Translations under genes and position numbers: made by a program
Shown here: positions 51,849-64,000 of the stretch, piece after piece
Layout: every line of letters begins with the position of its first letter
How positions within the stretch are numbered: position 1 is the stretch's first letter
The notes under the pieces: generated by a model
What the model was told of the DNA's origin: nothing
What the model saw: the letters and a program-made list of their open reading frames with translations, nothing else
Databases searched by the model: none
Origin: Gammaproteobacteria bacterium
GTDB lineage: Bacteria > Pseudomonadota > Gammaproteobacteria > GCA-001735895
Direction of reading: 5' to 3'
NCBI GenBank assembly: GCA_022340305.1
Contig: JAJDOF010000027.1
Span: 12,682 to 76,681, forward strand
Length of the DNA stretch: 64,000 nucleotides

Positions 51849-53426
51849 ATGCAGGAGTCACTCGGAAACCCAATCGACCAGGTCACAGACGGCGAAAACA
51901 ATGCAGTCGAATTTGATGCGGCTTACGCATTGCGTGGTGATCCCGCAACTGCCCTACGACAACTGCGAGCCATACACGGTGACGCAATCCATCTGCTGCC
52001 GATGTCAGCGACGTCAAGTGGTGGCGGCATTTTTCAGCATCACGACAAACCCGACGGCAGCGTCATCGGTCTGCGCTTCGACGCACCGCTCACCCCTCGC
52101 CTGCGCTTTGCCGCGCAGCCAGAGCTTGGCGAGATCGAGCAGGATGAAATCGTCATCGATCGCGCACTGCAGCAAATCAGCGCAGGCAGTGCAATCACGC
52201 TCGACCAGCTGAATCGCGCACTCGCCAACGAACTCGGACATAGCTACAAAGTGCCCGGCGCCGATCTTACCAGCTACCTGTACGCCGCGGTCGGCGCGAC
52301 TTTCATGACCGGGGGAATGGGACCACAGCGCCGTTACTTCAGTGACAGCGTAATCGAAGCCGCTATATTTGACGGCACGGAAACCATCAGCGTCGAGGGC
52401 GCTGCGTTACCGGGCTATGCCGGCACCTACGGCTGGAGCGGCATAGTCTGTGCAGTACGCTGCAATTATTTCCGCTTTCCCGCAAACGAAATCGCCTTTG
52501 CACTGCCGGTGTCGAGCGAGGCGCCGCGCCTCGCCGGATTGCTGGCCCACCTCGCACCCTATGTTTACCTCGAGCTCAAGCCCCAGCGGGTGACATCGCG
52601 TGGTGGCGGCGATGACTTGATACTGGGCATCGAACACGTCAGTTGCGCAGCGATGCAGCCGCTGTTACAGGGCGCAGTCGATCATCCTGCTCACAACAGG
52701 GCATTACAGCTGCAGCGTAAGTGCACAGCCGCAGGCGCGGATGGGCTGGTGTTTATCAATGGTTTCAGTGAGCGTAGTAGCGATGAATTTCTGCTCGACC
52801 TGGCGGACGACCTGGATGCCGAGTCACTCAGCATTGCCGGCATCGATATTGAATTCGCCGAGGTATTCAACGATCCCGAGGAAATGCGCGCAGTGCGCGA
52901 GGCGGTTCCCTATGCCGCTCGAACTCAGACCGGCAGTGGTAAGCTGGTCTACAAAAATCATTCCGATGCCAACATCCGCCTCGCACCCGACGAAGTGGCC
53001 GAGGGTAGTGAGCGCCTGTGGCGGATCAACAGCAGCTACGTCGAGCGGGTGCAACAGTATTTCGCCGCAGATCCCATGATTACCGGTCAGATTCTGGTCT
53101 ACGGCCACCTCAACCCCTACGGTATCGATCCGCACAATCGTGTCACCATTAGCGCTGACGACGAGGATGCGTTTAAGCGTTGTCGCGATTTCCTGGTCGA
53201 ACAGCGCGCGCAATATTATCGCGACCTGGCCGAATTGTGCAGCGACAGTAAAGCAGTCTTTATCGGGGGTGAAAAGAGCGCCGATTCCGAAATCGCCATA
53301 TACCGGGCGTTGGCAGGGCCGCAGAATGCGCCAGCTGCTCTGTATGAGCACTTCAACCAGCAGCGACAAACCATTGCCGCGGCGTCCCCGTTGTTCAACT
53401 GGCGAGCCCTGGCGCCTTATCGCTGA
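51849..53426 (+). CDS. hypothetical protein; weak resemblance to FAD-linked (PCMH/Dld-like) oxidases
   Basis: 525-aa ORF starting 15 nt after glnD. LLPMSATSSGGG and GATFMTGGMGPQRR loosely resemble the two Gly-rich FAD-binding segments of the PCMH fold. No firm family assignment is possible by eye. Confidence 0.55.
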   Translation: MQESLGNPIDQVTDGENNAVEFDAAYALRGDPATALRQLRAIHGDAIHLLPMSATSSGGGIFQHHDKPDGSVIGLRFDAPLTPRLRFAAQPELGEIEQDEIVIDRALQQISAGSAITLDQLNRALANELGHSYKVPGADLTSYLYAAVGATFMTGGMGPQRRYFSDSVIEAAIFDGTETISVEGAALPGYAGTYGWSGIVCAVRCNYFRFPANEIAFALPVSSEAPRLAGLLAHLAPYVYLELKPQRVTSRGGGDDLILGIEHVSCAAMQPLLQGAVDHPAHNRALQLQRKCTAAGADGLVFINGFSERSSDEFLLDLADDLDAESLSIAGIDIEFAEVFNDPEEMRAVREAVPYAARTQTGSGKLVYKNHSDANIRLAPDEVAEGSERLWRINSSYVERVQQYFAADPMITGQILVYGHLNPYGIDPHNRVTISADDEDAFKRCRDFLVEQRAQYYRDLAELCSDSKAVFIGGEKSADSEIAIYRALAGPQNAPAALYEHFNQQRQTIAAASPLFNWRALAPYR

Positions 53427-53448: not shown

Positions 53449-55248
53449 CTATGGCTTTTGCAATGGCAATAATCGGGCTAACGCTGGCAAGCCCGCAGCG
53501 GGATGCATCCCCAGGGCTGTGAGTTCTTCGACTACCGAAACCGGTAGTGCCTGACCATCGATTTTTTGATTCAGGACGCCACCCATGATGACCGGCAAGT
53601 CGATAGTGTCGCTTGCCAGTAGCTGCTTTAACTGGTTTGCGTATTCGAGCGCCATGCCGTTATGGGTACTGAGCAACAGCGCGTCGGCAGGCTGTCGGCG
53701 CAGTGCATCAAGCAAGTCCTGCGGATCCTGTTCGGCCCCAAGGTAAACGACTTCGGCGCCGGCTTCATCGAGCAGTTGCGCCAGTGCTCCGGCTGCGTGT
53801 TCATGCACATCGCTGGAGGCGACCAACAAGCGCATGCCTTTCACCCGAGCACGAAATGCGGCATCGCTGAACATCGGCCGATGCTCGTCGACGACTTCCT
53901 GCGACAAGGCGTACATATCCGTTGGCGGCGATTGCAGGTTTTCTATCTCGCCCGCAAACAGGGTTTCGAAGCCCTGCGCACCGAGTTGCTTCAGCAGGTA
54001 AAGCAACTGTAGCGGGTCACGCACATCAGCTCCGAGTTCATCCAGGCCGGCAAGCGCGTTAGCGAAGATCTCGCGCCCTTCCCGACAAACCGTGGCGGCA
54101 AACTGCTCAGCGGCCGAAAAATCGACATGCGGGTAGAGGCGTCGGGCACTCGCTTCAACCTGGCGACCGAATAATTGCGCCTCGATTATTTCATCAGTAG
54201 AGGGAATACGAATCGCCTCGGTGACCGGCAGCGGTAATACGGCATGGCCACAGGGCGCGTGCAATTGCACGAGAATGTCCCACAGCAGGTACTCGGCGGT
54301 AAGCGCGCGATTCTTCTCGAATTCGCGACCAAAAGAAATAGTATCGCCGTAAATCATCGAGCCGACCTGCTCGCCCTGATGAATATCGTGCAGCGCCAGC
54401 ACCCAGCCGGCACGTTTGATTGGATCGCGCGTCAGGCCACCGATGCAATGCGCCAGGCGCGCGCCTGTCAATTCCTCGACGATGTGACGCTCCAGCATGG
54501 CCCAGGCGGCGACACTGGCGCAATTTTTGAAAAGTGCGCCAAAACCATCTTCCAGGTATGAGTGCAGCATCACCCCCTGCGCGCGAAATTGGGCCAGCAC
54601 AAACATCGCCTGGCAAGTCTCGGCCGCCGTCGCAGCAGCGTCCCTCCAGCCCGGCGCTTCGAAGGTAAAATATTGCGACAGATTGCCGATGGTGGTGCAA
54701 CCGATGCGCAACGCCTCGATGCTGTTGGTAACCGAAGCCGGTTGCCCGATCATGAAATCGCCGAGGTGTGGCTGAACCGGTGCCGTCTGCGCCAGTGCAC
54801 TCCAGTCCTCGCGAGTGACCAGCATGGGGCCTGTTTCTGCGGCGGCAGCGGCGCGTCGCTGCGGCGGCAGGCCCATACGCCGATCCAGCGCAAAACCGGC
54901 GCGATCGAGGCGAAACTGACGGCTATCCAGCTCCGCGTGTATACACCGCAGTGCGGCGGCGGTGGCATCAATATCATTCATGCCGATATGTGCGTGATAC
55001 ATAATGCGCCCGTCCTGCATCGCCTGCTTTTTATACTCGTATTCGGATTCCACTTCGAAACGGTCGAGAAAAGCGGAGCGACCGGGGCGCACACTACTGG
55101 CGAGAATACGGGCCTGTTGACGCAGGTCGTTGCTGTTCGGCAGGCTTGCGCCGAGCGCTTGCCGAATGACGCCAATGGCGGCTGTCGTAGTGGTCACCGC
55201 CGGTTCAGGTCCGGGACCCGGGCTCGATGACAGTGAACTGCCAGGCAC
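53449..55248 (-). CDS. cobalamin (B12)-binding-domain fusion protein: ~450-aa N-terminal domain of uncertain family plus a C-terminal Rossmann-like B12-binding domain
   Basis: The C-terminal ~130 aa read MRLLVASSDVHEHAAGALAQLLDEAGAEVVYLG...ALLLSTHNG...PVIMGGVLN. This follows the DxHxxG / SxL / GG layout of B12-binding domains, with the motif Gly replaced by Ala. Only the N-terminal domain's size recalls the glutamate mutase E subunit. Confidence 0.6.
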   Translation of the reverse strand: MPGSSLSSSPGPGPEPAVTTTTAAIGVIRQALGASLPNSNDLRQQARILASSVRPGRSAFLDRFEVESEYEYKKQAMQDGRIMYHAHIGMNDIDATAAALRCIHAELDSRQFRLDRAGFALDRRMGLPPQRRAAAAAETGPMLVTREDWSALAQTAPVQPHLGDFMIGQPASVTNSIEALRIGCTTIGNLSQYFTFEAPGWRDAAATAAETCQAMFVLAQFRAQGVMLHSYLEDGFGALFKNCASVAAWAMLERHIVEELTGARLAHCIGGLTRDPIKRAGWVLALHDIHQGEQVGSMIYGDTISFGREFEKNRALTAEYLLWDILVQLHAPCGHAVLPLPVTEAIRIPSTDEIIEAQLFGRQVEASARRLYPHVDFSAAEQFAATVCREGREIFANALAGLDELGADVRDPLQLLYLLKQLGAQGFETLFAGEIENLQSPPTDMYALSQEVVDEHRPMFSDAAFRARVKGMRLLVASSDVHEHAAGALAQLLDEAGAEVVYLGAEQDPQDLLDALRRQPADALLLSTHNGMALEYANQLKQLLASDTIDLPVIMGGVLNQKIDGQALPVSVVEELTALGMHPAAGLPALARLLPLQKP

Positions 55249-59680: not shown

Positions 59681-60628
59681 ATGGATATCAAGCGTCTGCT
59701 TACCAGTCTTAGCAACAAAATTCTTTCCCAGTTTTTTATTGTAATCGCGGTTGCCATCGCACTGATCGCCTTCAACTTCGGCTCGGTCTATCCGTTCTAT
59801 ACCCAGAATCAACTGACCAACACCGGTATAATCATCAACAGCGCCATTGTGGCGTTGTTTCTGCTCGGTATCGGCAATATCTTTTTCCACCTGCTGCGCT
59901 ACCGTCGTGAGGAGGCCGCCATTGCCACCTTCGTCAACAACATGGAAGCTCAGAATCCAGACTATTTCGAAGGCGTGCCAGTCGATTCGATCATCGCACA
60001 GCGTCACGGCACCATGCGCACCATTCAGACTGCGCGTGGCGAAATCGATCACAGTGCTCTGGCGGCAATGCTCAATGCCGATGAGGCAACCCAGTTCGGC
60101 CTGATCCGCTTCATTAATAATATACTGATCCTGACCGGCGTGTTCGGCACCATCGTGTCATTGTCTATCGCGCTGCTCGGGGCTTCCGACCTGATCGATT
60201 CGGCCGATGCCAGCCTTGGTGGCATGGGCCTGGTGATTCATGGCATGTCGACCGCCCTGTCGACCACCATCACCGCAATCGTCTCCTATGCCATCTTCGG
60301 CTATTTCTACACGCGCCTCGGCGACGTGCAAACCCATTGCCTGAGCGGTATCGAACAGCTGACCTCGATCTACCTGTTGCCGCGCTACGTGAAGGCCAGC
60401 GATGAGATCGTGCACAAGCTGAGCGACCTGATTAAATCCGTCATTCATGCCGCGGACAAGCTCGGGCAAACCCAGGACACCTACCACGACGCGGCGATCA
60501 CACTTCAACAGACGATCGGCGCCAACCAGCAGCAGGCCGACCGCTTCGCAGACGAACTGGCGCAGATACGGCAGATACTGCGTGAGGGCTTCCGCCTGCC
60601 GGCGGATCGCAACGACGAAAACCTGTGA
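59681..60628 (+). CDS. MotA/TolQ/ExbB-family ion-channel protein (4 predicted TM helices)
   Basis: LILTGVFGTIVSL and HGMSTALSTTITAIVSYAIFGYFY match the conserved last two helices of the family (GxxGTV ... SxALxTT). Start taken at MDIKR (ATG 59681). Confidence 0.75.
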   Translation: MDIKRLLTSLSNKILSQFFIVIAVAIALIAFNFGSVYPFYTQNQLTNTGIIINSAIVALFLLGIGNIFFHLLRYRREEAAIATFVNNMEAQNPDYFEGVPVDSIIAQRHGTMRTIQTARGEIDHSALAAMLNADEATQFGLIRFINNILILTGVFGTIVSLSIALLGASDLIDSADASLGGMGLVIHGMSTALSTTITAIVSYAIFGYFYTRLGDVQTHCLSGIEQLTSIYLLPRYVKASDEIVHKLSDLIKSVIHAADKLGQTQDTYHDAAITLQQTIGANQQQADRFADELAQIRQILREGFRLPADRNDENL

Positions 60629-61623
60629 ACAACGGCTTCGCCCAGATTGGTAGCAGCCACTCGGGGATTGGCGGAGAGAACAGTTTCTGGCCGTCCTTCA
60701 CCGACGTGATGATGGTGATTACCCTGATCTTCCTGATGGCCACCAGCCTTCTGGTCGTGCGCAACTGGCAACTGGTCGCCGAATTGCAGGAAAGCATCGC
60801 TGCCGAGCGTATGGCCACGCAGATGATCGAATCCACCTCGCTGGAAAACGCCACCCTGGAAGAACGCCTCGCTAACGCCGAGCAAAGTAACTCCATTCTG
60901 CGCCTGCGCCTGATGAAGAAAGACGAGGAACTGTCCAGCGCCCAATCGACGATCAGCGAGCAGGAGTCGAGTATCGCCTCGCTGCAGCAGGAAAATCGCG
61001 CAATGCAATCGTCATTGCAGCAAACGCGCGACGAGCTTGCGGCCGCCAACCTTGAAATCAATGCGACGACCGCGCAGTCCAATGAAATGGCGCGCCAGCT
61101 TGCGCAACTGCAGCAGCAACTGGCCCAACAGCAGCAGGCCGGTGAGGAAATCCGCGCCGAGCTCGACAGCGCACGCCTGCAGATTTCCGAACTGACCACA
61201 TCGAGCACTCAGCAACAACAGGCCATCAGCCAGCTCACCGAAGAAAAGGCGCAGTTGTCGCAGGAAATCATTGCCTATAACCAGCAACTGCTGACCTTGA
61301 AAGGCGAGTACGAAACGGTTAAATCACAGTACGAGGAACTGATCAAACCCGCGCGCAGTGCGAAAGGCAAGCACATCGCCCAGGTGTACTACGTCAAGGA
61401 CGAGTCCGGCCCCGTGATTCGCTATCGTCAACCCGGCGATGCGGGTTTCAGCCGGCTTAACCTGGCCGAAGTCGAAAAGCGTCTGGCGCAGCTCAAGCGC
61501 GAATACGGTAAAGATCTCTACATCAAGATCATCATCCCCGAGAACAGTGGACTCACCTATAACGAGGCCTGGGAATTCATGCGCAACCTGCTGGTCAAGT
61601 ACGATTACTATTACCAGGAGTAA
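60625..61623 (+). CDS. ExbD/TolR/MotB-like single-pass protein with a ~190-aa Gln-rich coiled coil inserted between the TM helix and the C-terminal domain
   Basis: GTG start overlaps the upstream TGA (GTGA). FWPSFTDVMMVITLIFLM resembles the ExbD/TolR TM helix with its conserved Asp. A long Q/E/L/A heptad-like region follows (QLAQLQQQLAQQQQAGEE). The C-terminal DLYIKIIIPENSGLTYNEAWEFMRNLL resembles the ExbD periplasmic domain. No OmpA-like motif is present. Confidence 0.65.
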   Translation: MNNGFAQIGSSHSGIGGENSFWPSFTDVMMVITLIFLMATSLLVVRNWQLVAELQESIAAERMATQMIESTSLENATLEERLANAEQSNSILRLRLMKKDEELSSAQSTISEQESSIASLQQENRAMQSSLQQTRDELAAANLEINATTAQSNEMARQLAQLQQQLAQQQQAGEEIRAELDSARLQISELTTSSTQQQQAISQLTEEKAQLSQEIIAYNQQLLTLKGEYETVKSQYEELIKPARSAKGKHIAQVYYVKDESGPVIRYRQPGDAGFSRLNLAEVEKRLAQLKREYGKDLYIKIIIPENSGLTYNEAWEFMRNLLVKYDYYYQE

Positions 61624-61676: not shown

Positions 61677-61889
61677 ATGTCGGCAATAATCCTGGAATCG
61701 ACGCTGACCTGTCCGCATTGCGGCTATCGAAAAACCGAGATCATGCCAACCGATGCCTGCCTGTATTACTACGAATGTGAATCCTGCCAGATGCTGCTGA
61801 AACCTGCAGCGGGCGACTGCTGTGTGTTCTGCTCCTTCGCGGACGTCGAATGCCCATCAATCCAGCAAGCGCAAGCCCTCGGCAAATGA
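61677..61889 (+). CDS. GDCCVxC-motif cysteine-rich mini-protein (probable metal-binding)
   Basis: 70 aa with CPHC...CESC...GDCCVFC...C. I recall a family named after the GDCCVxC motif, some of whose members are selenoproteins. This recollection needs verification. Confidence 0.7.
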   Translation: MSAIILESTLTCPHCGYRKTEIMPTDACLYYYECESCQMLLKPAAGDCCVFCSFADVECPSIQQAQALGK

Positions 61890-62266: not shown

Positions 62267-63604
62267 ATGAGTGACGCAGCCTACCAGCAGAAAAGCGCAC
62301 AACTCAGTCGCCAGCTGCGCGCGCAAACCGACGCCATACGCCTCGAAAAAACAACTTCCAATTTATTCCGTACACGCACACAACCGGCTGGCAGCAAGCT
62401 CGATGTGCGCGCGCTCAACCAGGTCATCAATGTCGACAACGAGAGGCAGGTGGTCGAGGTCGAAGGCATGACGACCTATGCTGACCTGACCGATGCCTGC
62501 CTCGCGCACAACTGCATGCCGCTGGTGGTTCCACAATTGAAGTCGATCACCATCGGCGGTGCGGTGTGCGGTATCGGTATTGAATCGACCTCGTTCCGCT
62601 ACGGGCTGCCGCACGAGACAATCAATCGCATGGAAGTACTGCTGGCCAACGGCGACGTGGTCGACTGCAGCCCCGACAACGAGCACAGCGACCTGTTTTT
62701 CGGCATCCCCAATTCTTACGGAACGCTGGGCTATATCCTCAAGCTCGAAGCCCGCACCTTGCCGGTTAAACCTTATGTTGAACTGCAACACATTCGTTAC
62801 AGTGATATCGATGCCTATTTCGCCGCAGTCGCCGATGCCTGTCAAAGTGACGTTGATTTCGTCGACGGCTCGATCTTCGATAAAAACGAAATGTACCTGA
62901 CGCTCGGTCATTTTCGCGATAGCGCTCCCTACACCAGTGACTACAGCTGGCTGAAAATGTATTTCCGCTCGATCCAGCAGCGCAGGCAAGACTTCCTCAG
63001 CGTGCACGACTATATCTGGCGCTGGGATACCGACTGGTTCTGGTGCTCGAAGAACCTGTTCGTGCAAAACATGCCGATGCGATTACTGCTCGGCAGAAAA
63101 CGCCTGAACTCGATCTCCTACCAGAAGGTAATGCGCTGGAACAACCGGGTTGGCCTCACCAAACGCATCAATCGCCTGCTTAACAGGGAACCCGAGGGCG
63201 TGGTGCAGGACGTCGACATCCCGCTCGAGCATGCGCCCGAATTCCTGCGCTTTTTCCTGCAGGAGATTGGCATTCACCCCGTATGGATGTGCCCGATCGG
63301 TGGGCACAATCTTGCTCACAATTTTCCGTTTTATCCCCTTCACGGCAGTGGTCTGTTTGTCAATTTCGGCTTCTGGGACATCGTACCCAACCCGCAACAT
63401 CACGAGCCCGGCTACTTCAACCGCAAGATCGAAGCCAGGGTCACCGAGCTGGGCGGCATCAAATCGCTCTATTCCGATTCCTATTACGACGAAGATCGAT
63501 TCTGGGAACTTTATAACGGCGAACGCTACCGCGAGCTGAAACAGCACTACGACCCCGATGGACGCCTGCGGAATCTCTACCAGAAGTGCGTATTACGCCA
63601 GTAA
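62267..63604 (+). CDS. FAD-binding oxidoreductase (PCMH-type FAD domain, DWF1/delta24-reductase-like)
   Basis: SITIGGAVCGIGIESTSFRYGLPHE and NSYGTLGYILKLE. 445 aa. I recall this family often lying next to cfa. Confidence 0.8.
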   Translation: MSDAAYQQKSAQLSRQLRAQTDAIRLEKTTSNLFRTRTQPAGSKLDVRALNQVINVDNERQVVEVEGMTTYADLTDACLAHNCMPLVVPQLKSITIGGAVCGIGIESTSFRYGLPHETINRMEVLLANGDVVDCSPDNEHSDLFFGIPNSYGTLGYILKLEARTLPVKPYVELQHIRYSDIDAYFAAVADACQSDVDFVDGSIFDKNEMYLTLGHFRDSAPYTSDYSWLKMYFRSIQQRRQDFLSVHDYIWRWDTDWFWCSKNLFVQNMPMRLLLGRKRLNSISYQKVMRWNNRVGLTKRINRLLNREPEGVVQDVDIPLEHAPEFLRFFLQEIGIHPVWMCPIGGHNLAHNFPFYPLHGSGLFVNFGFWDIVPNPQHHEPGYFNRKIEARVTELGGIKSLYSDSYYDEDRFWELYNGERYRELKQHYDPDGRLRNLYQKCVLRQ

Positions 63605-63642
63605 ACAGGGTCACGGCAGACATGACCCCAATAACAGCTTGT

Positions 63643-64000
63643 TCAGGCTTCGGCCGGCTCTTCTGCAGGTTCCGGGATAGTTGTTTTCGGCGCATTCTGT
63701 GGGTAGAGATGCGCCCGCGACCACGCCAGCTGGTTGTTTTGCTCCCGTGAAAAAACCACCTGGAATAACTGCAATTCACCAACATTGAACGCCGCGATCG
63801 ATCCAGCCAGGTAGAGCCGCCAGGTCCTGACAAAGGTCTCGTCCATCATCTCCCGAATTTCCGCGCTGTGCTGCTCGTAACGCGCCAGCCAATGTTGCAG
63901 TGTCAGCGAATAATGCAGGCGCAGGTTTTCCACGTCGAGCACCGACAGGCGATTAGGCTCGAAGATCGCCATCATTTCCTTCAGGCTGGGGGGATAGGCC
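63643..64000 (-). CDS. cfa: cyclopropane-fatty-acyl-phospholipid synthase family methyltransferase, C-terminal part (runs off the right edge)
   Basis: ENLRLHYSLTLQHWLARYE...FVRTWRLYLAGSIAAFNVGELQLFQVVF is the conserved CFA-synthase C-terminus. The frame stays open to position 64000. Confidence 0.85.
   Translation of the reverse strand, partial: AYPPSLKEMMAIFEPNRLSVLDVENLRLHYSLTLQHWLARYEQHSAEIREMMDETFVRTWRLYLAGSIAAFNVGELQLFQVVFSREQNNQLAWSRAHLYPQNAPKTTIPEPAEEPAEA

Follow-up and report, generated by a model that had tools for sequence, protein, structure and literature searches.

We asked what kind of system is encoded by two overlapping genes in a 64,000-nucleotide (nt) stretch of DNA from an uncultured member of the Gammaproteobacteria (contig JAJDOF010000027.1; the whole stretch is referred to as the window). 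Gene A (59681..60628, + strand) encodes a membrane subunit of the MotA/ExbB/TolQ superfamily of 315 amino acids (aa), as judged from its open reading frame (ORF), the PF01618 matches of its family, an AlphaFold model, Foldseek and HHalign. Gene B (60625..61623, + strand), whose GTG start overlaps the stop of A, encodes an ExbD/TolR-like subunit of 332 aa with an inserted coiled-coil stalk. The A-B pair belongs firmly to the superfamily of MotA/ExbB plus MotB/ExbD motors, with ExbBD and TolQR as the nearest relatives. Beyond this assignment, we consider it probable that the two proteins make up a self-contained ion-driven motor of the MotA/ExbB plus MotB/ExbD type, inherited on the chromosome, in which B is ExbD-like, carries its own coiled-coil stalk and works without a separate TonB or TolA.

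Are both genes real, and where do they begin and end? A starts with an ATG at 59681 (MDIKRLL...) and stops with a TGA at 60626-60628, and B runs from a GTG at 60625 to 61623; the four letters GTGA, to be read in AACCTGTGAACAAC, hold both the A stop and the B start. The equivalent start Met, the first residue of MDI(K/Q)RLLT, is found in all homologues of A; a longer ORF from 59624 is therefore unsupported, and the GTGA overlap and the coordinates proposed by an earlier reading of the window from its sequence without database searches (the sequence-only reading) are exact. A search of 5.8 billion proteins yielded 3087 relatives of A and 1758 of B, and the best 120 relatives of each were 72-100% identical over the full length and came from many metagenomes and metagenome-assembled genomes (MAGs). 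Judged from these sequences, A and B are real proteins under strong constraint. Current annotation calls A a 'hypothetical protein' and B a 'chromosome segregation ATPase' or 'SbcCD ATPase subunit', the mislabelling of B as an ATPase being due to its coiled coil; a protein identical to B is listed as LJE92_03410 from a MAG of an uncultured gammaproteobacterium. A profile search of 1.84 billion cluster representatives gave ∼460 family representatives of A at 50% identity, nearly all of them 300-350 aa long. The diverse sets used below comprise 86 full-length members for A, 25-45% identical to window A, and 20 homologues for B.

The assignment of A to the MotA/ExbB family is carried by its relatives and by its predicted fold. 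The Pfam model MotA_ExbB (PF01618) was matched by 70 of the 86 diverse members at E ≤ 0.01 (best 3.5e-7). With window A as the query, the best library matches were weak ones to ZorA2 models of PADLOC (7e-5) and a scan of NCBIfam gave no match, while a search of PDB sequences with the A profile returned coiled-coil or chance matches only. An AlphaFold model built on the alignment of the 86 diverse sequences reached a predicted local distance difference test (pLDDT) score of 91 and a predicted template-modelling (pTM) score of 0.75; an alignment of 24 sequences with at least 73% identity had given a pLDDT of 46, and that model was discarded. When the retained model was searched against the PDB with Foldseek, all 44 of the 44 best matches were chains of ExbB, TolQ, PomA, MotA or ZorA (best match E = 5e-4, probability 1.0; TM-score, by target length, up to 0.59). 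The HHalign comparison with ExbB/TolQ used a profile assembled from E. coli K-12 and plasmid records, and it paired residues 42-229 of A with residues 7-218 of ExbB over 182 columns (P = 1.5e-4, Prob 51%). As modelled, A has the ExbB/MotA-type fold, with a helical membrane core and long helices that extend into the cytoplasm.

Does A retain the residues that line the ion path in its relatives? In the HHalign alignment, G153-V-F-G-T157 of A pairs with G144-L-F-G-T148 of ExbB, and T196 of A pairs with T181 of ExbB. T157, T195 and T196 are each at least 90% conserved among the 86 sequences. In the Ton and Tol systems, threonines of the T148/T181 type of ExbB sit on the inner helices and face the Asp of ExbD or TolR. 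Hydropathy and the model predict four membrane (TM) helices in A, all on the + strand: TM1 (residues 18-36, 59732..59788), TM2 (residues 50-68, 59828..59884, equivalent to ExbB TM1 by HHalign), TM3 (residues 141-169, LILTGVFGTIVSL, 60101..60187, equivalent to ExbB TM2 and holding T157) and TM4 (residues ∼181-205, GMSTALSTTITAIVSY, 60221..60295, equivalent to ExbB TM3 and holding T196), the last two being placed by HHalign, residue numbering and conservation. Since the last three helices match TM1-3 of ExbB, and the ExbB alignment begins only at residue 42 of A, the predicted N-terminal helix 18-36 is an addition; given this helix, the N-terminus of A should be cytoplasmic, by analogy with MotA. 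Conservation was high in TM3 (0.75), in TM4 (0.72) and in a short LREGFRL motif near the C-terminus (0.77).

The C-terminal part of A differs from the core in its variability. Beyond TM4 the model continues as a helix to about residue 236, followed by a second helix at 240-304. The C-terminal helical tail (residues 236-306, 60386..60598, + strand), which is predicted to be cytoplasmic and is delimited by the model, the tail lengths and conservation, varies in length and ends in LREGFRL; the tail helix itself had a conservation of 0.26. The distance from GVFGT to GFRL was 149-150 residues in most of the family, and the longer distances lay mostly near 149 + 7n (e.g. 156, 163, 170 and 184). One 669-aa member (P0308, locus L080, 6001-8010) has a repetitive coiled-coil tail of ∼370 residues that is reminiscent of ZorA; its partner in the same locus is a 439-aa B of the usual architecture, and a gene for a Fic-domain protein comes next.

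We asked the corresponding question for B: does it carry the membrane helix and the aspartate of an ExbD/TolR-type subunit? Library matches of window B consisted of coiled-coil noise (SMC, crescentin, JetC etc.), together with weak ZorB1 matches (0.003) on residues 17-69, the stretch that contains the membrane helix. This helix, FWPSFTDVMMVITLIFLMA (residues 21-45, 60685..60759, + strand), is the most conserved part of B (0.72), and its Asp27 (codon 60703-60705) is invariant in 20 of the 20 diverse B proteins. HHalign with the N-terminal B profile placed D27 on D25 of ExbD (P = 1.4e-4), on D32 of MotB (P = 2e-3) and on D23 of TolR (P = 7e-3), and the same register was obtained against a 12-sequence ExbD/TolR profile. 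Conservation in the pair peaks at TM3 and TM4 of A and at the membrane helix of B. A hidden Markov model search found no OmpA or MotB_plug domain in window B or in the 20 diverse homologues.

At its other end B carries an alpha/beta domain (residues 242-332, PARS...YDYYYQE, 61348..61620, + strand), which HHalign and its shuffled controls make probably ExbD/TolR-like. The C-terminal ∼90 residues (PARSAKGK...LYIKIIIPENSGLTYNEAWEFMRNLLVKYDYYYQE) had a conservation of 0.55. The C-terminal domains of B found no match in Pfam or in PDB sequences (a profile search of the PDB gave coiled-coil or chance matches), and HHalign against the single ExbD and TolR sequences of E. coli was not significant (E = 0.22 and 0.51, respectively), both alignments falling on the equivalent segment. 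Against a profile of ExbD/TolR periplasmic domains made of 12 sequences from public records, residues 276-324 of B aligned with ExbD 79-124 over 46 columns (Prob 77.9%, P = 1.9e-5). The score of 31.1 compares with 10.0 ± 2.2 for shuffled alignments (maximum 22.0; 0 of 150 reached the score) and with 16.3 for the reversed alignment. It is because of this score relative to the shuffled and reversed controls that we call the head domain ExbD/TolR-like, an assignment which the sequences make likely but which is not proven.

What lies between the helix and the head? Gln, Glu, Leu, Ala and Ser are abundant in residues 48-243 of B, and these 196 residues include 1 Pro and 2 Gly. From about residue 57 to 240 the heptad register is unbroken, the periodicity of hydrophobicity is strongest at exactly 3.5 residues and the score of the a and d positions exceeds that of shuffled sequences (z = 6.3). 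Heptad and periodicity analysis, insertions and deletions in multiples of the heptad and conservation by region thus delimit one continuous predicted coiled coil of ∼26 heptads in a single register (residues ∼57-240, 60793..61344, + strand), the base of which is conserved up to about residue 100 and the middle of which is variable. Coiled coils rise by ∼0.15 nm per residue, and 180 residues therefore correspond to a calculated length of ∼27 nm if the stalk is straight. The distance between the membrane-helix motif and PARS was 221 residues in most of 65 loci. Other distances were mostly 221 ± 7n (207, 214, 228 ... 263, 319), and the exceptions were 218 in eight loci as well as 288, 302 and 316, which fit 7n + 4. 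Length steps of seven are what a continuous coiled coil requires.

The lengths of the two variable parts, measured over residues ∼153-303 of A and ∼21-242 of B in window numbering, were also compared with each other. Within the window's clade, each lineage with a longer A tail also had a longer B coil. This covariation was broken in seven further lineages, where A tails of 192 and 184 occurred with B coils of 207. Length coupling as a sign of physical contact between the A tail and the B coil was rejected for this reason, and we treat the association as lineage-specific repeat expansion.

What the sequence-only reading saw in the letters is borne out by these results, and its interpretation is borne out in part. 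It had placed A in the MotA/TolQ/ExbB family from motifs, which are present, and had described in B an ExbD/TolR-type helix with a conserved Asp, a heptad-like segment between helix and head and the lack of an OmpA or other peptidoglycan-binding motif. Its proposal of an ExbD-like C-terminal domain stands as far as the profile comparison with its shuffled controls is concerned, but the domain did not match ExbD in Pfam or any PDB sequence.

Next to which genes does the pair occur, and is it mobile? A scan of one genome per species gave 76 related loci. Their hosts are uncultured marine and sediment Gammaproteobacteria, Cellvibrionaceae, Pseudohongiellaceae, the Gamma 3 symbiont of Olavius algarvensis, Sedimenticola, Thiolapillus brandeum, Chromatiaceae and Mariprofundus (Zetaproteobacteria); the few bins named Polaribacter, Acidimicrobiia and Haliangium are presumed to be binning errors. 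B adjoins A, overlapping it or within ∼20 nt, in all loci with readable downstream sequence except two (L073 and L074, considered below). The flanking genes vary. In the window's clade the upstream neighbours are genes for cystathionine gamma-lyase, an MR/MLE enzyme and cystathionine beta-synthase. In three other lineages A-B lies between mnmE and mnmG. Loci L096, L098 and L099 have it immediately upstream of mnmG (gidA), and in the first two of these yidC-mnmE precedes it, in a classical origin-proximal housekeeping cluster; in L099 the upstream genes are a DUF4145 gene and an integrase-like fragment. In Mariprofundus (L071-L074) the insertion lies within the housekeeping array obgE-proB-proA / nadD-rsfS, after proA and before nadD. 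A third gene that stays with A-B across clades was not found.

The neighbourhoods also bear on the absence of a partner. Genes for TonB-, TolA-, Pal-, flagellar, gliding or Zorya-like proteins were not found beside A-B in any locus examined, and in the window no Ton, Tol, flagellar, gliding or Zorya gene lies within ∼10 kb of the pair. E. coli TolQ, TolR, TolA, ExbB, ExbD, MotA and MotB used as queries had no match in the window or in the loci. The claims of the sequence-only reading that such genes are missing nearby and that A and B form a stand-alone two-gene module are thus extended from one contig to the loci examined, and it is possible that a partner of the TonB/TolA type is encoded elsewhere in the genome. 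A tblastn search with A was negative for 72,556 plasmids and for 50,697 phage records, and an origin of A-B from a mobile element or a defence island was rejected. The changing housekeeping neighbours, together with the lack of plasmid and phage matches, make the module look vertically inherited and chromosomal.

Several other features of these loci were recorded. In the window, 54 nt separate B from a downstream gene for a GDCCVxC-domain (seleno)protein of 70 aa (61677-61889, + strand; NCBIfam NF041374, E = 5e-29). Its co-occurrence with A-B, a point raised by the sequence-only reading, did not hold up: a homologue was nearby in 1 of the 76 loci, and a link of this gene to the pair was rejected. 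In MAG MO_140.B7, A-B pairs are present on two contigs (L058 and L070), with A 58% and 65% identical to window A, which suggests either paralogous copies in one genome or mixed binning. Further upstream in the window, a 525-aa ORF without a Pfam match (51849-53426, + strand) is convergent with a gene for a 599-aa protein (53449-55248, − strand), whose sole match is a C-terminal B12-binding domain and which is kept together with the 525-aa ORF in many related loci at 62-86% identity. At 62267-63975 the window holds a gene for a FAD_binding_4 oxidase (+ strand) and, after it, a cyclopropane-fatty-acid-synthase-like (CMAS) gene on the minus strand. Loci L005, L015, L017, L022, L023 and L032 were considered together with this stretch: relatives have ORFs of ∼112, 446 and 257 aa next, and other loci have a CMAS paralogue immediately upstream of A. 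The FAD_binding_4 and CMAS genes are probably a separate lipid-modification operon.

How would the A-B pair work as a motor? If the pair is built like its solved relatives, the membrane helices of two B subunits would be encircled by several A subunits, presumably in the 5:2 stoichiometry that the sequence-only reading had proposed. Protons (or Na+) would pass between Asp27 of B and Thr157 and Thr196 on TM3 and TM4 of A, and this flow of ions would drive a movement of A relative to B. B would be oriented with its N-terminus in the cytoplasm and its stalk in the periplasm, and the B dimer would form a parallel coiled coil of ∼180 residues between the membrane helix and the ExbD/TolR-like head. 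Since a long coil separates helix and head, B could hold its own head well away from the inner membrane, as far out as the cell wall or past it, with no need of TonB or TolA. Force or torque would then be passed along the stalk of B, and the A tail with its LREGFRL tip may provide a second interface in the cytoplasm. The cellular role is most likely some task in envelope maintenance, a role that we favour because of the housekeeping contexts and the strong conservation. A more specific version, which we put forward tentatively and think doubtful, is a minimal trans-envelope rotary motor: the ExbD-like dimer would serve as a coiled-coil drive shaft or tether of 30-50 nm that couples the proton gradient to a target in the cell wall or outer membrane without an adaptor of the TonB or TolA class, and the LREGFRL tail would be a second, cytoplasmic output.

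Several observations weigh against a stalk-bearing motor of this kind. Window A reached 15.1 bits with PF01618 (E = 0.02; cut-off 22.9), and window B had no match to the ExbD model PF02472 at E ≤ 1, with 2 of the 20 diverse B proteins matching it at E ≤ 0.1 (best 0.012). The HHalign probabilities are moderate for both subunits (51% for A, 78% for the C-terminal domain of B). The orientation of B has to be taken from homology, because its N-terminal tail carries no positive charges. In two Mariprofundus loci, L073 and L074 (the latter from a pure culture, strain EBB-1), nadD follows directly after A and the fetched DNA contains no B-like ORF. In the Mariprofundus MAGs L071 and L072 and in lineage L078, B stops after the coil and lacks the C-terminal domain; in L078 (1102-1635) a distant short B of 177 aa has the helix with its Asp, a short coil and a Lys/Tyr/His-rich tail, KYKHQGKYKHKGYKNH..., that replaces the ExbD-like head. 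Distant relatives keep the helix with Asp, the coil, PARS... and YDYYYQ, with a coil of ∼198 to ∼359 residues, a range that fits poorly to a ruler of fixed periplasmic width. Because stalk lengths spread so widely and some lineages have lost the head, caution is due towards a simple picture in which B spans the periplasm to the outer membrane.

Could these subunits be derived from a motor that no longer transduces energy? A and B might serve as a tether or spacer that does not move, or as a gated leak for ions, with the coiled coil acting as a structural strut or positional marker. The dominance of the stalk in B, its greatly varying length, the lineages that have lost the C-terminal domain or B altogether, and the lack of an identified target for the pair, which also counts against a working motor, are what such a tether would lead one to expect. 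We nevertheless judge it quite unlikely, as the strongest conservation of A and B falls on the helices and residues of the ion path (TM3, TM4, T157 and T196 of A; D27 of B), as would be expected if selection still acts on ion flow. The orientation of B raises a different doubt. If the topology were inverted, the coil of B would lie in the cytoplasm, bundled with the cytoplasmic tail of A. The longer B coils that accompany longer A tails throughout the window's clade would suit this arrangement, as would the N-terminal tail of B, which has no Lys or Arg, and the Arg just after the membrane helix. The covariation fails elsewhere, however, and the N-terminal tail of ExbD is also uncharged or acidic, yet ExbD has its N-terminus in the cytoplasm. 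Asp27 moreover sits at the N-proximal end of its helix, as in all relatives, and the C-terminal domain of B appears to resemble the periplasmic domain of ExbD/TolR, so that an inverted B appears very improbable.

A third possibility is that the pair is an envelope sensor resembling Zorya, in which the B stalk would report perturbation of the outer envelope and the ion-driven motion of A would be read through its cytoplasmic tail and LREGFRL tip, recruiting factors encoded elsewhere. ZorA2 models of PADLOC are the best library matches of A, and up to 16 of the 86 members match any one ZorA model; the cytoplasmic helical tail of A has a quantised length and a conserved tip, and in P0308 it becomes ZorA-like. 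What speaks against a sensor is the company that A-B keeps: no gene for ZorC, ZorD, ZorE or an effector-like protein is conserved beside it, its contexts are of the housekeeping type with vertical inheritance, and plasmid or phage copies were not found. B also lacks the peptidoglycan-binding domain that ZorB needs, and the A tail has ∼70 residues compared with ∼500 in ZorA (PMC11946911). A sensor of this kind is in our view improbable. The sensor, the tether and the inverted topology each fit fewer observations than does an ion-driven motor with a stalk-bearing B.

Why would such a motor matter? The ion-driven 5:2 motors (Mot, Ton, Tol, Gld/Por and Zorya) are, to our knowledge, the only known means by which Gram-negative bacteria deliver energy beyond the inner membrane, and each newly understood variant has exposed a distinct cellular process. 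Current annotation does not recognise the A-B family, although it occurs widely, with strong conservation, in Gammaproteobacteria from marine and sediment sources, in Zetaproteobacteria, and in symbionts that oxidise sulfur together with relatives that are free-living (Olavius Gamma 3, Sedimenticola, Thiolapillus). Should B indeed transmit force through its stalk, the pair would combine motor and transducer in a naturally fused form and would be a simpler system in which to study how rotation becomes work at a distance. For annotation, A and B define two families that could be named.

Finally, we asked how A-B compares with the systems already described. The closest resemblance is to ExbB-ExbD and TolQ-TolR: these give the best structural matches of A, the GxFGT and TM3 threonine signature is in register, the Asp helix of B aligns best with ExbD, the C-terminal domain of B probably resembles their periplasmic domain, and the gene order, A then B, with translational coupling is the same. 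The differences are that no TonB or TolA gene adjoins A-B in any locus, that B has some 180 or more coiled-coil residues between helix and head where ExbD and TolR have a short linker, that A gains a membrane helix at its N-terminus and, at its C-terminus, a longer tail tipped by GFRL, and that window A and B score under the curated thresholds of Pfam and NCBIfam. With MotA-MotB and PomA-PomB the pair shares the predicted four-helix topology of A, the alignment of D27 with D32 of MotB and the presence of PomA and MotA among the fold matches, whereas A-B has no OmpA-like peptidoglycan-binding domain and no flagellar genes nearby, and the cytoplasmic domain of A is of the compact ExbB type. B residues 18-140, i.e. 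the helix and the first part of the coil, also gave a weak match (E = 3e-4) to the NCBIfam 'peptidoglycan-binding protein' PRK09039 (NF006542, NF006543), a family annotated as peptidoglycan-binding by name, with scores of ∼20 bits against cut-offs of 305-388. This suggests that PRK09039, too, is annotated but uncharacterised and has a coiled coil after a membrane helix.

The likeness to Zorya consists of the weak recurrent matches to ZorA and ZorB models and of the C-terminal cytoplasmic helical tail of A, which is very long in P0308. ZorA has three membrane helices and a ∼70 nm tail (∼500 residues), ZorB has a peptidoglycan-binding domain and ZorC and ZorD, both soluble effectors, are encoded alongside (PMC11946911). 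In A-B, the tail of A is ∼70 residues long, B has no peptidoglycan-binding domain, effector genes are absent from all loci, and it is B that carries the extension, on what would be the opposite side of the membrane. Known motor classes and heterogeneous uncharacterised non-flagellar homologues have been described (PMC12505986, PMC9389320, PMC12204202, PMC11946911), and a 2025 survey of MotAB reports heterogeneous non-flagellar homologues without the A-B architecture (PMC12505986). In the searchable literature, the coverage of which is incomplete, no account came up of a stand-alone pair whose ExbD-like subunit carries a long coiled-coil insertion. The architecture therefore appears undescribed, as the sequence-only reading had supposed, although the motor class itself is known and a B-type subunit that crosses the periplasm has a precedent in GldM/PorM.

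GldL-GldM and PorL-PorM are conceptually the closest precedent, because in their published structures the B-type subunit extends across the periplasm. GldM/PorM crosses it as a dimer, without a TonB-like adaptor, by means of helical and immunoglobulin (Ig)-like domains; GldL has two membrane helices, and the systems occur in Bacteroidota beside gld/por genes. Window A and B had no match to the GldL and GldM models of Pfam, and the neighbours of A-B are unrelated to gld/por. A has four predicted membrane helices, and B would reach outwards by a different design, in which a canonical coiled coil leads to a probably ExbD-like head.

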